IMG/VR virus record: IMGVR_UViG_3300046779_001735
Span: 92,621-156,620 of that record
Length of the DNA stretch: 64,000 bases
From: a virus
Reading direction: 5' to 3' (one strand)
The notes under the pieces are model-generated. The model saw only the letters and a program-made list of their open reading frames with translations. It made no database searches and was not told the DNA's origin. The translations under genes were made by a program, and so were the position numbers. This document shows positions 22,382-27,666 of the stretch, piece by piece. Position 1 is the stretch's first letter. Every line of letters begins with the position of its first letter.

Positions 22382-23782
22382 ATGTCAAATCCAATAGCTC
22401 CCCAAATAAGTATTGATATAGATAGCCATCATTTTCAAGGCATTGCAGTGGCAGAAGAATGGATTCGTGATCTAGAAAGTTCAGATAGCCGTTTGCACAA
22501 AGAGCGTGTGATAGAAAAAGCTCTCATGGCCTCAAAATTAGGCAGCTACAATGCTCAATGTTTCTTGTTCAATTGCTACCTTGCCTACAATCCATTTTTT
22601 ACATACAATATCAAAAAGGTTCCAGAAAGCGAGAATCTAGAAAACCGTCCTAACCATTGGCCCCAGTTTTGGGCGTTGTGTGAAAGTCTGCGCACAAGAT
22701 CGGTAACTGGCAATGCTGCTCGTGCTGCTATTGAAAGAGTTATGGCAGACTTTGATAGCTCAGAATGGAACATGGTGTGCCGTAGAGTTCTAATCAAGGA
22801 CCTGCGCTGTGGTATTTCAGAAAAAACTCTAAACAAGGTATTGGACAAAAGCGAATGGCGTATTCCTGTGTTTACCTGTCAGTTGGCACAAGACAGTGAT
22901 GGCAATCCGCACAAGCTCAAAGGCGATAAACGTCTTGAATGTAAGTTGGATGGTGTGCGTGTTTTAGCTGTGATTTCTATCAATAGTTCCGTTACTCTGT
23001 ATAGTCGCAATGGCAAGGTGTTTGATAACTTTGCTATGATTGAAAATCAGATATCAGAGCTTGCCAACCACATACGCGGTAAACTAGGTGGCCATTTGAA
23101 TGTGGTATTGGACGGCGAAATTGTTGGTGAAAGTTTTCAAAGTCTTATGAAACAAGCGCATAGAAAAAACAATGCGCAAACAGATAATATGATGTATCAT
23201 GTGTTTGATTTTATTCCAATGGATAAATTTGAACAAGGTGCATACAATTTAGACCTAAATTCAAGACTTGATGCACTGGAAAAACTCAGTGATTTATTTC
23301 AGCAAACTGAATGCCTACGGGTGGTACCCGGGCTGCACGTTGACCTTGATACCAGTGAAGGTCATGACATCATGGATAGATTTGCCAAGCATGCTGTGGA
23401 CACAGGCTTTGAAGGTATCATGATCAAGGATCTAGATGCTGTGTACAAATGCACACGTAACATAGGTTGGATGAAATGGAAGCCCACAATCACGTTGGAT
23501 CTAAATATTGTGGGATTTGAAGAAGGCACGGGTCGCAATCAAGGCAGACTAGGTGCTATCATTTGTGAAGGAGTAGACAATGAACGTAGAATTTCCGTTA
23601 ATGTTGGTAGTGGTTTTAGCGATAGCGATCGGGACTCTTTTTACGCCCGTAGAATGGACCTGCTTGGTCATGTGGTTGAAATCGAAGCTGATGCAGTTAC
23701 GCAAAACCAAGACGGATCATACAGCCTAAGATTTCCAAGGTTTGTGAGATTCCGTGGATTCGAACCCGGGGAAAAACTCTAA
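22382..23782 (+). CDS. ATP-dependent DNA ligase
   Basis: ECKLDGVR, LDGEI, EGIMIK, WMKWK, SLRFPRF. Confidence 0.96.
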   Translation: MSNPIAPQISIDIDSHHFQGIAVAEEWIRDLESSDSRLHKERVIEKALMASKLGSYNAQCFLFNCYLAYNPFFTYNIKKVPESENLENRPNHWPQFWALCESLRTRSVTGNAARAAIERVMADFDSSEWNMVCRRVLIKDLRCGISEKTLNKVLDKSEWRIPVFTCQLAQDSDGNPHKLKGDKRLECKLDGVRVLAVISINSSVTLYSRNGKVFDNFAMIENQISELANHIRGKLGGHLNVVLDGEIVGESFQSLMKQAHRKNNAQTDNMMYHVFDFIPMDKFEQGAYNLDLNSRLDALEKLSDLFQQTECLRVVPGLHVDLDTSEGHDIMDRFAKHAVDTGFEGIMIKDLDAVYKCTRNIGWMKWKPTITLDLNIVGFEEGTGRNQGRLGAIICEGVDNERRISVNVGSGFSDSDRDSFYARRMDLLGHVVEIEADAVTQNQDGSYSLRFPRFVRFRGFEPGEKL

Positions 23783-23783
23783 G

Positions 23784-24110
23784 ATGCAGCATAAATTCTT
23801 AGTAATGTGGAATCGCGATGGACTACAATATGTGGGTGATCAAACCCGTATTAATGGCGAACAGATTTGGGATAGAATACGCTGTGCAGAATCACACTGG
23901 TATCCTGACGTCATGCACCTGCGCACAATAGCTCAACGCCAGCCACATCTACATTTTGAAATCTGGGAATTCATAACAGATCCGGGTATCACCGAAGATC
24001 ACATCAAACAAATCTTTGAACAAAATCCTCAAAAGTCTGCAGACCTAGTTAGATCCTTGGGACAATGTTTGTACAGTGATCGCATTGTCACTGAAGCAAA
24101 AATTACCTAA
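23784..24110 (+). CDS. Hypothetical protein
   Basis: ORF directly after the ligase. Confidence 0.55.
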   Translation: MQHKFLVMWNRDGLQYVGDQTRINGEQIWDRIRCAESHWYPDVMHLRTIAQRQPHLHFEIWEFITDPGITEDHIKQIFEQNPQKSADLVRSLGQCLYSDRIVTEAKIT

Positions 24111-24148
24111 ACACTAGTATTTTCTCTAATGCAGCAGTATAATACACA

Positions 24149-24362
24149 GGCAGTTCTTGGGTGTATAGGGAGGTGTGGCAAGGATTCGCCCGGGGTATGG
24201 ATCCATGGCTATGTGACTGTCAATAAATCCTCCGAGGTGCGGCACCGGCCTGAACAAGACTAGACCGCTTTGAGTCTTGTTCAAAACCCATATGAACCCA
24301 ACAAAACTTGGCTCTTCATGGGACTTTGGCTTTGATAGGACGGTCGCGGTGAAAGCTCTTTT
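24149..24362 (+). ncRNA. Candidate structured non-coding RNA (family unknown)
   Basis: ORF-free gap with TATAAT at 24138-24143, several long complementary stems, and a terminal hairpin plus U tract (see findings). Confidence 0.5.
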
Positions 24363-24397
24363 GAGTATTGAAACTAAAAACCACTAATTGAAAAATT

Positions 24398-24712
24398 ATG
24401 TCTAGGTCACTCGATCCGCTTAAAGAAACGACTCAAGAACTGCACAGATTTTATTTTATGATACGCAGTGCCGACCAATGGTATGCTATCATGAAAGAAT
24501 GTAGACAGCACTTTGGTAAGAACTGGCATTGTCAGAGCAAGGTGCTTCGCAAACTCAAGGATGTCAAACGCTTTGGTTATTATTCCATGACGCCTCCAGC
24601 AAGACCCATTTGGTTTGATATACCAAATGCTGCTATAGCTACCTGGATAGCAGTGAAGTTAGGCGTAGAAGTACGCAGTGATCTCAAGCATAAACCTTCA
24701 ATAAATAATTAG
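24398..24712 (+). CDS. Hypothetical protein
   Basis: 104-aa ORF. Confidence 0.55.
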   Translation: MSRSLDPLKETTQELHRFYFMIRSADQWYAIMKECRQHFGKNWHCQSKVLRKLKDVKRFGYYSMTPPARPIWFDIPNAAIATWIAVKLGVEVRSDLKHKPSINN

Positions 24713-24715
24713 GCT

Positions 24716-26236
24716 ATGTTTTTAAGTTATGTAATGTTGATAGTGGCACTGTGTCTCAGCGCAGTTGCCGCTTTTTATTCTATAGTAGGTCTTACTGCTA
24801 TTTTTGCCGCGGCAGTAATACCTATCATTGTGATGGGGTCAATTCTTGAAGTAGCCAAGGTCACAGTGACCATTTGGTTACATGAATACTGGCCGCAGTG
24901 CCGCCTGGCCATGAAGGCCTATCTAGTGCCCGCAGTGGGCTTGTTGATGTTGATCACCAGCATGGGTATCTTTGGATTCCTGAGCAAAGCACACACTGAT
25001 CAAAGTTTGGTAAGTGGGGACAGCCAGGCTAAAATAGCCATATACGATGAAAAAATAAAAACAGCCAAAGACAACATAGAAACCAACCGCCGAGCATTGA
25101 AACAGATGGACGAGGCTGTGGATCAGGTCATGGGCAGAAGCACTGACGAAAAAGGTGCAGACAAAGCAGTGTCTATACGACGAGCACAACAAAAAGAACG
25201 CAGTCGACTACTGGCAGAGATAGGTGTAGAACAAACCAAGATCAGCAAGCTCAATGAAGAAGCCGCGCCACTGCGTGCAGAAAATCGTAAAATTGAAGCC
25301 GAAGTAGGTCCTATCAAATACATTGCCGCTTTGATTTATGGAGACAACCCAGATCAAAATATACTTGAACGTGCGGTGCGCTGGGTAATCATAATCATTG
25401 TTGCTGTGTTTGATCCATTGGCTATAATGATGTTGTTGGCTGCTACAGAAAGCATGAAGTGGGAAAGACAAGCACGAGCCGGTACAGTGATACCAGTGCC
25501 AGTACCAGTTGAACCTGTTGTTGAAAGTTTGCCTGATCCCGAACCAAAAGATATTGACGCCAATCAAAGTGATGACCCATGGCCTTTTCCAATGCAACGT
25601 CCAGTGGAAGGCGATGAGAAACTTGCGCAAGATGAGCAGCAACTAGCAGAGCAGGCCAATGCAGAAATCAGTGAACTTGATCCACCCGAGCCGGATATTG
25701 AAGTTGTTGAGCACCAAGAAATACACGAAATCAAAGAAGAAGTATTAGAAAACCTGTCTGAACAAATGATTGAACCAGCGCCCCAAGCAGATGACGCTAT
25801 AGATCAATCACTGGCAGAAGATCAGGAAAAAGCAGCTATGCGTGAGTGGAAAACTTCACACCCTGAAAGCACCATAAAAGAACAGCGACGTTTGGTTGAG
25901 CGTGGTGCTATCTCTGAGGTACCGTGGGCTGCTAACCTTGCTTTGCGTGCCGACAATGCACTATTAAATGGAAACATTTCAGGTTTTGGTATTGCCTTTC
26001 CAGACAATGCAAACAAAGGAGATCTATATCTTCGTGTGGACATGCTTCCTACAGTGCTATATAAACATAATGGCAAAAAATGGATAGAAGTTGATAAAGA
26101 CCTAAGTGATTCATACGCCTATGATGAAGCTTATATTGACTTTTTGATAGCCAAACTTGAATCTGGTGAATACGACGCTGAAATGTTGACTTACAGCGAA
26201 CGTGAACAGATAGCAGCTCGTTTACAAAAATCATAA
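24716..26236 (+). CDS. Membrane protein with coiled coil (DUF4407-like) and acidic C-terminal region
   Basis: Three N-terminal TM helices, LEVAK, SMGIFGFLSKAH, EVGPIKYIA, VFDPLAI. Confidence 0.65.
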   Translation: MFLSYVMLIVALCLSAVAAFYSIVGLTAIFAAAVIPIIVMGSILEVAKVTVTIWLHEYWPQCRLAMKAYLVPAVGLLMLITSMGIFGFLSKAHTDQSLVSGDSQAKIAIYDEKIKTAKDNIETNRRALKQMDEAVDQVMGRSTDEKGADKAVSIRRAQQKERSRLLAEIGVEQTKISKLNEEAAPLRAENRKIEAEVGPIKYIAALIYGDNPDQNILERAVRWVIIIIVAVFDPLAIMMLLAATESMKWERQARAGTVIPVPVPVEPVVESLPDPEPKDIDANQSDDPWPFPMQRPVEGDEKLAQDEQQLAEQANAEISELDPPEPDIEVVEHQEIHEIKEEVLENLSEQMIEPAPQADDAIDQSLAEDQEKAAMREWKTSHPESTIKEQRRLVERGAISEVPWAANLALRADNALLNGNISGFGIAFPDNANKGDLYLRVDMLPTVLYKHNGKKWIEVDKDLSDSYAYDEAYIDFLIAKLESGEYDAEMLTYSEREQIAARLQKS

Positions 26237-26242
26237 AAAATT

Positions 26243-27439
26243 ATGCTTCAAGATTATGCTTCATCCTGCTCGTTCTGTGGCAAGCACAAGGACGCAGTTA
26301 AAAAACTCATAGTTGGAGACAAGGTTGGTATCTGCAACGAATGTGTGCACCTATGTGATGATCTGCTGGAACAAGAATCACCTCTTGACAGTGAAGTGTT
26401 ACAAACCCCTGAACTTGATCCTAAACAGATAAAACAATTTCTTGATCAATATGTAATAGGCCAAGATCAAGCCAAGATCATGTTGAGTGTTGCTATTGTT
26501 AATCATTATAAGCGCATCAACAATCCAGACCCCGGGGTGGAAATTGACAAAAGCAATGTGCTTTTGCTAGGTCCCACAGGATCAGGAAAAACACTCTTGG
26601 CTAAAAGTGTGGCTCGATATCTTGATGTGCCTTTTGCTATTGCAGATGCTACTAGTCTAACCGAAGCAGGTTATGTTGGCGATGATGTGGAAAGTTTAAT
26701 TAGCCGATTGTACATAGAAAGCAAAGGAGACATTGAAAAAACTCAACGCGGCATTGTGTTTATTGACGAGATTGATAAAATAGCCCGCAAAAGTGAAAGT
26801 ACCAGCATCACACGAGATGTATCAGGCGAAGGTGTGCAACAGGCGCTGCTCAAACTAGTAGAAGGTACTCGTTGTAGAATCGCTCCTAGTCTTGGAAGAA
26901 AGAATCCCAATCAAGAATTCATTGAAATTGATACCACTAATATTTTGTTTGTTGCAGGCGGCGCATTTGAAGGGTTACAAGACATCATACAGACCCGTGT
27001 GCAAGGTACTGCCATGGGATTCTCTGCTCAGATCAGCAACAAACAGGATCAAAATTTCCTCAGCCAACTCAATCCTGATGACCTTGTGAAATTTGGCTTA
27101 ATTCCGGAGTTTGTAGGAAGATTCACTAATTGGGTGGCTTTGCAAGAACTTGACATTACACAGCTAGTCAGTATCATGTGCGATGTAAAAAATAATTGGA
27201 TAAGTCAGTACCAATGGATTTTTGCACAAGACAAAGTAGAGTTAGAGTTCACTGAACAGGCTCTGCTATTAATAGCGCAACGAGCCAAGACCACACGAAC
27301 CGGAGCGCGAGCATTACACAGCGAGCTAGAACGCATCCTGATGCCACACATGTATCATCTGCGCGATTACCATCGTGACCAGATTCAAACAGTCAATATA
27401 GGCATAGATTTGGTAAATAACCCTACACATTTACAGTGA
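26243..27439 (+). CDS. clpX: ATP-dependent Clp protease ATPase subunit ClpX
   Basis: Zn finger [52 protein letters not shown] loop. Confidence 0.97.
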
Positions 27440-27447
27440 GGAGTTCA

Positions 27448-27666
27448 GTGAGAAAAGGTAAAACAGTAGTGGTACACGATGGCAATGTAGAAAAAGCTCT
27501 GCGCAAACTCAAGAAAAAAGTTCAAGAGGACCGCTTGCTGATTAACCTACGTGAACGAGAACAGTATACCAAACCCACAACACAGCGCAAACTCAAGGCC
27601 AATGCTGCCCGTAACCGTTGGCGCAAATATCTGGCAAGTCAGAAATTGCCTGCCAAAAGATATTGA
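27448..27666 (+). CDS. rpsU: Ribosomal protein bS21
   Basis: VHDGNVEKALRKLKKKV...REREQYTKPT; GAGGAG RBS with GTG start; TAAATA at 27414. Confidence 0.85.
   Translation: MRKGKTVVVHDGNVEKALRKLKKKVQEDRLLINLREREQYTKPTTQRKLKANAARNRWRKYLASQKLPAKRY

Follow-up and report, generated by a model that had tools for sequence, protein, structure and literature searches.

What is encoded in a gap with no conserved open reading frame, lying between a DNA ligase region and a set of closely spaced phage genes? The question was raised by the window, a stretch of 64,000 nucleotides (positions 92,621 to 156,620 of IMG/VR virus record IMGVR_UViG_3300046779_001735). The record measures 156.6 kb at an estimated completeness of 45%, and therefore its source is a very large phage. 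Downstream of the gap, a 104-aa gene, p104, heads a tightly packed operon of p104, p506, clpX, and then rpsU. The initial annotation had described the gap as an ORF-free structured RNA with its own promoter, arranged as a rod and released as a discrete, terminated transcript of ~210 nt, and had proposed either a phage ncRNA or a switch-like leader. The ORF-free structured RNA and its promoter were borne out by the present analysis, but the rod architecture and the discrete transcript were not. What was found is a conserved, covarying RNA of the plus strand, with its own promoter and no terminator before the gene that follows. The corresponding features are summarized in Table 1.

Table 1. Genes, promoter, and RNA features of the locus, in window coordinates
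Feature	Position	Strand	Remarks
ATP-dependent DNA ligase	22382–23782		Upstream of the gap
108-aa ORF (p108)	23784–24110		Between ligase and gap
Gap with RNA element	24111–24397		No conserved ORF
−10 hexamer TATAAT	24138–24143	+	Invariant or near-invariant in all relatives
Conserved transcript 5′ end (predicted)	24150–24168	+	GCAGU..GGG; family consensus GCAGUGAAnGGG; conservation begins with the first base past the promoter
P1 5′ strand GGAGG	24169–24173	+	Pairs with 24229–24233; 95% paired; both-side changes in 5/5 pairs
P2 5′ strand	24176–24180	+	Pairs with 24218–24222; 88% paired; 5/5 pairs covary
P3 hairpin AGGAUUC.../...GGAUCC	24182–24204	+	24182–24188 with 24198–24204; 93% paired; 6/7 pairs covary
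Junction CCAUGGC (family CCRUGGC)	24203–24209	+	P3 3′ side; near-invariant in the family
P2 3′ strand, conserved UAA junction, P1 3′ strand CCUCC	24218–24233	+	
Junction GGUGCGG (family GGUGYGG)	24236–24242	+	Between the domains; invariant in the close clade, near-invariant in the family
P4 5′ strand CACCG	24243–24247	+	Pairs with CGGUG 24347–24351; 99% paired
P5 hairpin	24251–24283	+	11 bp, 11-nt loop; 94.7% paired; 11/11 pairs covary
Pseudoknot 5′ strand GACCG	24263–24267	+	P5 loop nt 2–6; pairs with 24341–24345
P6 hairpin	24287–24322	+	Conserved internal loop, 3′ strand C-CnCU; window GGCUCUUC
Conserved single-stranded stretch	24323–24340	+	Family GGGAGUAnGCC ... AGG; possibly a 2–4 bp mini-hairpin
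Pseudoknot 3′ strand CGGUC, linker, P4 3′ strand CGGUG	24341–24351	+	
P8 hairpin GCUC-UUUU-GAGU	24355–24366	+	After GGUGAAAG; pairs 2–4 covary
Conserved tail	24367–24397	+	AUC/AUU, GAAAC, CnCU-type motif, A/U-rich spacer up to the start codon
p104, 104-aa gene	24398–24712	+	3′ neighbour of the RNA in every RNA-bearing locus
p506, 506-aa protein	24716–26236	+	Second operon gene; no known family
ClpX	26243–27439	+	Third operon gene; p506 and ClpX together span 24716–27439
76-aa ORF	27436–27666		4-nt overlap with the clpX end; relatives in the fetched loci carry a ribosomal protein S21 domain
Hsp20 gene			Farther downstream, beyond the 27436–27666 ORF

Relatives of the locus were collected by fetching contigs from freshwater metagenomes and IMG/VR through the flanking small proteins. 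Homologous gaps were present in at least 27 phage loci, all of them between the DNA ligase region and p104, and p104 identity among these RNA-bearing loci falls to approximately 40%. On the fetched contigs the layout consisted of the ligase, sometimes a small ORF, a gap of ~280 nt, p104, p506, and ClpX; the order ligase, RNA, p104, p506, and ClpX was found in 20 of the 20 loci examined, with constant orientation. Nucleotide conservation in the gap equals or exceeds that of the flanking genes, the RNA being 80% identical to that of relative L003 when the p104 gene is 74% and the p108 gene 69% identical, and long invariant blocks run through the gap across relatives. A covariance model was built from a plain MAFFT alignment of the close clade and then used on distant loci, where it detected the element directly 5′ of p104 at E values of 1e-39 to 6e-4 and p104 identities of 40–65%. 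The homologue search suggested in the initial annotation was thereby productive through flanking proteins and the covariance model, and BLAST of the gap and its surrounding 10 kb against 50,697 phage records returned no match.

The element is confined to one genomic setting. It occurs as a single copy in the 156-kb record, and every contig on which pattern scans of IMG/VR, including one with a degenerate pattern, located it carries p104 as well. When metagenome contigs were scanned with an exact pattern, ~80 random GC-rich matches and only three additional family loci were obtained. With the same degenerate pattern, 80 loci were obtained from prokaryote genomes, none of which passed the covariance model, and a protein-based search of prokaryote genomes gave no usable relatives. 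In Rfam 15, as the initial annotation had anticipated in calling the RNA unannotated, no family matched: the only match in the whole window was a tRNA elsewhere, nothing meaningful appeared in region 23900–24600 at E up to 10 (best 16–18 bits against thresholds of 50), and nothing overlapped the element in 12 diverse relatives at E up to 1. ARAGORN detected neither a tRNA nor a tmRNA at the element. Likenesses to the T-box, the cobalamin B12-box, and yybP-ykoY had been noted by eye and were dropped, none of those Rfam models giving a score. A narrow literature search found no description of the element. It is a structured RNA family without prior description, carried by large uncultured freshwater phages, and we rate it a new class among structured phage and bacterial leader RNAs and orphan riboswitch candidates.

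The structure was evaluated by comparing relatives. In 25 sequences, 93.7% of 1019 cells of the final structure were paired, and compensatory changes were observed in 37 of 43 pairs, so that homologues do contain covarying pairs. None of 500 shuffles reached the observed values, and partners slid by 1–3 columns paired in 31–47%. Because alignments A7 and A9 had been fitted to the model, these pairing figures are somewhat inflated, but the helices came from an unfitted alignment and contain many Watson–Crick pair types; one P2 pair, for example, is CG in 8, GC in 7, and UA in 6 sequences. From the plain MAFFT alignment of ten close-clade sequences, RNAalifold predicted P1–P6 de novo with 13 covarying pairs. 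Moreover, approximately 77 G-U cells were counted by hand in the pair table; as transcription of the opposite strand would turn each of them into an A-C mismatch, they mark the RNA as a plus-strand product. The initial annotation had regarded a folding energy no better than that of dinucleotide-shuffled controls as evidence against the element, and on energy alone this is what was obtained: the minimum free energy of 24150–24365 gave z −0.51, and the minus strand z −0.02. Support for the structure therefore comes from the comparison of relatives and not from energy.

The comparison establishes a predicted fold of two domains in a folded element of ~220–250 nt, of which the first ~220 nt carry covariation support. 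The first domain comprises P1, P2, and P3 with conserved asymmetric internal loops; P2 was never predicted by single-sequence energy folding. No supported pairing partner was found for the GGUGYGG junction between the domains. In the second domain, P4 encloses P5 and P6 with a pseudoknot. P4 shows a compensatory change of C-G to U-A in two lineages and four pair types at its fifth pair. P5 is the perfect 11-bp hairpin that had been recognized in the initial annotation, and every one of its pairs covaries. P6 corresponds to a pairing of CCCAU..GAA with UUCAUGGG (CCCAU/AUGGG) that had been listed as an alternative only; it is a real hairpin, with its basal helix 95% paired, covariation in 5/5 basal pairs, and inner helices that also change in step.

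A kissing contact between GACCG in the P5 loop and CGGUC had likewise been proposed. To evaluate this contact independently of the alignment, complementarity to the P5 loop was examined with the P4 3′ strand as an anchor. In almost every sequence, the best complement involved loop nucleotides 2–6 and ended two bases 5′ of P4; the linker between pseudoknot and P4 is one base in the window and two in the family register with P4 anchored at GGUG. At least nine different complementary versions occurred in the same register (GACCG/CGGUC, GCCAC/GUGGC, GGGCC/GGCCC, GCCGC/GCGGC, AGCCGC/GCGGCU, and further GUCA/UGAC, ACUGC/GCAGU, GACUG/CAGUC, GACUU/AAGUC, and GCUAC/GUAGC), and a column-based count gave 89–91% paired. 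Thus, as those versions indicate, the contact is a real 5-bp pseudoknot, but CGGUC does not lie in the loop of a terminal hairpin as had been supposed, that hairpin being 35.6% paired. Two helices of the first structure model were discarded. P7 (UGGCC/GGUCG), placed at 24323–24340, used the pseudoknot strand as its 3′ strand, and a GG.U/AGC helix clashed with the covarying P8.

The pairings on which the rod had been based were not recovered. The closing stem, 24152–24170 with 24287–24308, was 52–56% paired in 25 relatives against 38–48% for slid controls, and its duplex energy was no better than that of a shuffled leader (z −1.15 in the window and ~0 in most relatives). Single-sequence folding does reproduce this stem; it competes with P6, as its 3′ arm belongs to that covarying hairpin. 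GGUGU/GCACC (24172–24176 with 24242–24246) was 68% paired without compensation, and AGGAUU/AAUCCU (24181–24186 with 24226–24231) was also 68% paired, with P3 and P1 forming instead. Since none of these three pairings was supported, the rod-like, 6S-like picture fails. The element resembles 6S RNA in its similar length and in having one long perfect hairpin. However, it consists of two branched domains, has neither a closing rod of its 5′ and 3′ ends nor a central bubble, and is not an independent terminated gene. None of the Rfam 6S covariance models matched: the window was searched at the gathering score and with E allowed up to 10, and the 12 relatives with E allowed up to 1.

The promoter proposed in the initial annotation at the TATAAT hexamer is retained in relatives. 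The mean match of the −10 box was 5.1 of 6, and a fixed 6-nt gap separated it from the conserved GCAG start in 22 of 27 loci. A TGn extension of the −10 was present in 12 of the 27, and a perfect −35 TTGACA at 17 nt in some; in several loci, an intrinsic terminator of the preceding gene lies just upstream of the promoter. The window itself has a weak −35, and the promoter at 24138–24143 was absent from the output of the promoter scan. Judging from the conserved spacing, transcription most likely begins at 24150 or 24151, 6–7 nt past the −10. For the conserved 5′ end at 24150–24168, a covariation scan and duplex folding gave no consistent partner, and its pairing with P6 was not above that of a shuffled leader.

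At the 3′ end, P8 was evaluated in 24 sequences with a test anchored on flanking motifs. Pairing was found in 92 of 96 cells, against an average of 70.9 for 2000 shuffles, none of which exceeded 83, and the exchanges GCUC/GAGU, GCAG/CUGU, GCAU/AUGU, and GUAU/AUAU were observed. A terminal hairpin GGCUUU/AAAGCU (24328–24357) with a following U tract had been read here as the end of the transcript; the hairpin is the poorly paired one mentioned above, and the U run is the loop of P8. The terminator scan found none within the gap and none internal in 23000–25500. With the terminator unsupported, a discrete terminated transcript of ~210 nt is therefore not supported. The motif that most lineages carry in the tail beyond P8 is GGAGAUCUCU; the window clade has AAAAACCACU instead. 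Conserved sequence stops ~13 nt before the AUG, and the spacer between the tail motif and the AUG is A/U-rich, variable, and 8–17 nt long. The tail motif ends in CnCU, as does the internal loop on the 3′ strand of P6, and no pairing partner could be demonstrated for either copy. This motif lies at 24379–24388 in the window and at 2483–2492 in L132; the version of most relatives, GGAGAUCUCU (DNA GAGATCTC), contains a palindrome and precedes the p104 start by ~13 nt. The tail motif may provide a second site for binding, mediate dimerisation, or act as a DNA operator.

What, then, does the RNA do? The comparison of loci makes it about an even call that this undescribed RNA family from large freshwater phages acts in cis, as a regulatory 5′ leader of p104-p506-clpX, most likely of a riboswitch-like or protein-binding type. 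This reading was reached because there is no terminator, the tail extends nearly to the AUG, the orientation is constant, and the context is single; in all 27 RNA-bearing loci, the structure occupies the 5′-leader position on the same strand with no intervening terminator or gene. Host sigma-70-type RNA polymerase would initiate at ~24150, past the conserved −10, and, as the covariation shows, the first ~220 nt fold into the P1-P2-P3 domain and the P4-closed domain with P5, P6, and the 5-bp pseudoknot, followed by P8. Transcription would then run on, without a terminator, into p104 and the rest of the operon. A ligand or protein bound at the conserved junctions might set operon expression; the binder might be a metabolite, a component of the ribosome, or the small protein that the operon itself encodes.

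Some observations count against a leader acting in cis. No expression platform was recognized by eye or duplex search, there being neither a terminator/antiterminator pair nor a conserved pairing over the start codon. In the window clade, p104 lacks a Shine-Dalgarno sequence that could be hidden, the distance from tail motif to AUG varies, and a p104 lineage without the RNA exists, as do two with a reduced form of it. Shine-Dalgarno sequences were found for ~45% of the window genes; p104, p506, and clpX (starting at 24398, 24716, and 26243) have A/U-rich upstream sequences instead. Given that share, the absence before p104 is not special. Since only one gene context is available, the argument for a riboswitch from varied regulated genes could not be used.

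Two groups of known leaders are comparable to the element. With riboswitch aptamers that form a loop-to-strand pseudoknot, it shares the 5′-leader site, a length of ~220 nt, covariation, invariant junctions, and a pseudoknot beside the closing helix; however, it matches no Rfam 15 class, has a single gene context, and has no recognizable expression platform. Autogenous leader operators include the T4 gene 32 pseudoknot, the lambda nutL-N arrangement, and ribosomal protein leaders. The element is similar to these in the succession of promoter, structured RNA, and small first gene of an early-type operon, and in its pseudoknot, but it is far larger and more complex, and the predicted product of p104 is a folded ferredoxin-like domain of no known family.

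The p104 protein also bears on a second reading, namely that the RNA is released by cleavage from the operon transcript, whose 5′ end it forms, and persists as a stable trans-acting ncRNA, in a ribonucleoprotein with p104 or another phage or host protein. We consider this rather unlikely, although it is a serious rival to a cis-acting leader and the strongest one. It is favored by conservation that begins at the first transcribed base behind a near-consensus promoter, by a compact, pseudoknotted, and junction-rich fold that is more elaborate than simple protein operators, by the strict linkage of RNA and p104 in 27 loci, and by the missing expression platform. Relatives of p104 formed 70 clusters, all viral, and neither Pfam nor PHROG contained a matching family. 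The AlphaFold model (pLDDT 83.5) is a generic ferredoxin-like beta-alpha-beta-beta-alpha-beta domain, in which the nearly invariant aromatic and basic residues H16, R17, W72, and F73 lie within modelled strands 16–22 and 69–75; as modelled, they would suit RNA binding as in RRM- or S6-like binders. However, the fold matches are weak and generic, with Foldseek E values of ~0.05–0.3 (including ribosomal protein S6) and VIA Z of at most 7.2, spread over ACT, metal-binding, and pro-peptide domains, and fold and feature searches with p104 and p506 indicated no function. Moreover, a 3′ end is indicated by neither a terminator nor a recognizable processing site, conservation of the tail extends nearly as far as the start codon, and p104 occurs without the RNA in one lineage.

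Processive antitermination, in which the nascent leader binds RNA polymerase and secures read-through across the operon, as with HK022 put or the Bacillus EAR element, appears improbable. The element resembles these cis-acting structured RNAs in its conserved 5′-proximal structure and in lying directly downstream of a host-type promoter, where a long and tightly packed operon begins. It is three times the size of put and unrelated in fold, Rfam contained no match to EAR or other leaders, and the operon region covered by the terminator scan offers no internal terminators to be read through. Finally, it is scarcely credible that the gap is conserved for a short protein-coding gene, be it on the plus or the minus strand, or for a site acting at the DNA level: a stop-free minus-strand frame does cross the whole element in 12 of 27 homologues (24150–24374 in the window), and in one metagenome annotation (L007) a gene has been assigned to that strand of the gap, but the explanation was rejected because indels break the frame in close relatives (1 nt between the closest, L118 and L119, leaving a longest minus-strand ORF of 37 aa, and 4, 2, and 1 nt in L023) and because substitutions are paired across helices and not placed at third codon positions, with strand-specific G-U pairs; base composition probably accounts for the open frame.

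Phages have so far yielded few structured RNAs, and the large uncultured phages of lakes almost none. With a defined promoter, a supported pseudoknotted structure, invariant junctions, and a fixed genetic partner, the present element is directly testable. The products of its operon include ClpX and, farther downstream, ribosomal protein S21 and Hsp20. Tentatively, and with somewhat less than even confidence, we suggest that the element represents a new ligand- or protein-sensing leader class or a new small ribonucleoprotein, whose lineage-specific, pseudoknotted fold would set expression of the clpX and S21 operon and so link a signal to host proteolysis and translation control. Should it prove to be a sensor, it would reveal which signal a phage responds to ahead of its remodelling of host proteostasis and translation; should it prove to be a ribonucleoprotein, it would give a lead to the function of two widespread phage proteins, p104 and p506.

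Variants of the locus were also observed. In a divergent p104 lineage with 36% identity (L190:1–1827 and L191:1117–1182), a gap of only 64 nt separates p104 from the ligase, no trace of the RNA is present, and p104 is followed by a 563-aa relative of p506. A reduced form of the RNA was found in two lineages, L141:2300–2500 and L193:190–378, in which domain 1, P4, and AAAAC are kept, together with CCGUGGC, GGUGYRGCAC, and a short pseudoknot. L193 has neither the long P5 nor P6, and in L141 a short hairpin similar to P6 is retained; in both lineages the gene is preceded by a canonical Shine-Dalgarno sequence, AAAGGA. Given one p104 lineage without the RNA and two reduced forms, regulation by the RNA is therefore dispensable.

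Within the operon, the 76-aa S21-like ORF at 27436–27666 appears to share its transcription unit with the leader RNA. The closest cultured relative of p506 is from Pelagibacter phage Mosig, in which the similarity covers the N-terminal half only, at 41% identity, and no such RNA context is present. The N-terminal ~250 aa of p506 (window 24716–25475) are well conserved, at 60–80% within the group, and match no known family or fold. This N-terminal half also occurs in the jumbo phages XacN1, Xoo-sp13, SCTP-2, and RsoM2USA, and in Flavobacterium and Microcystis phages.
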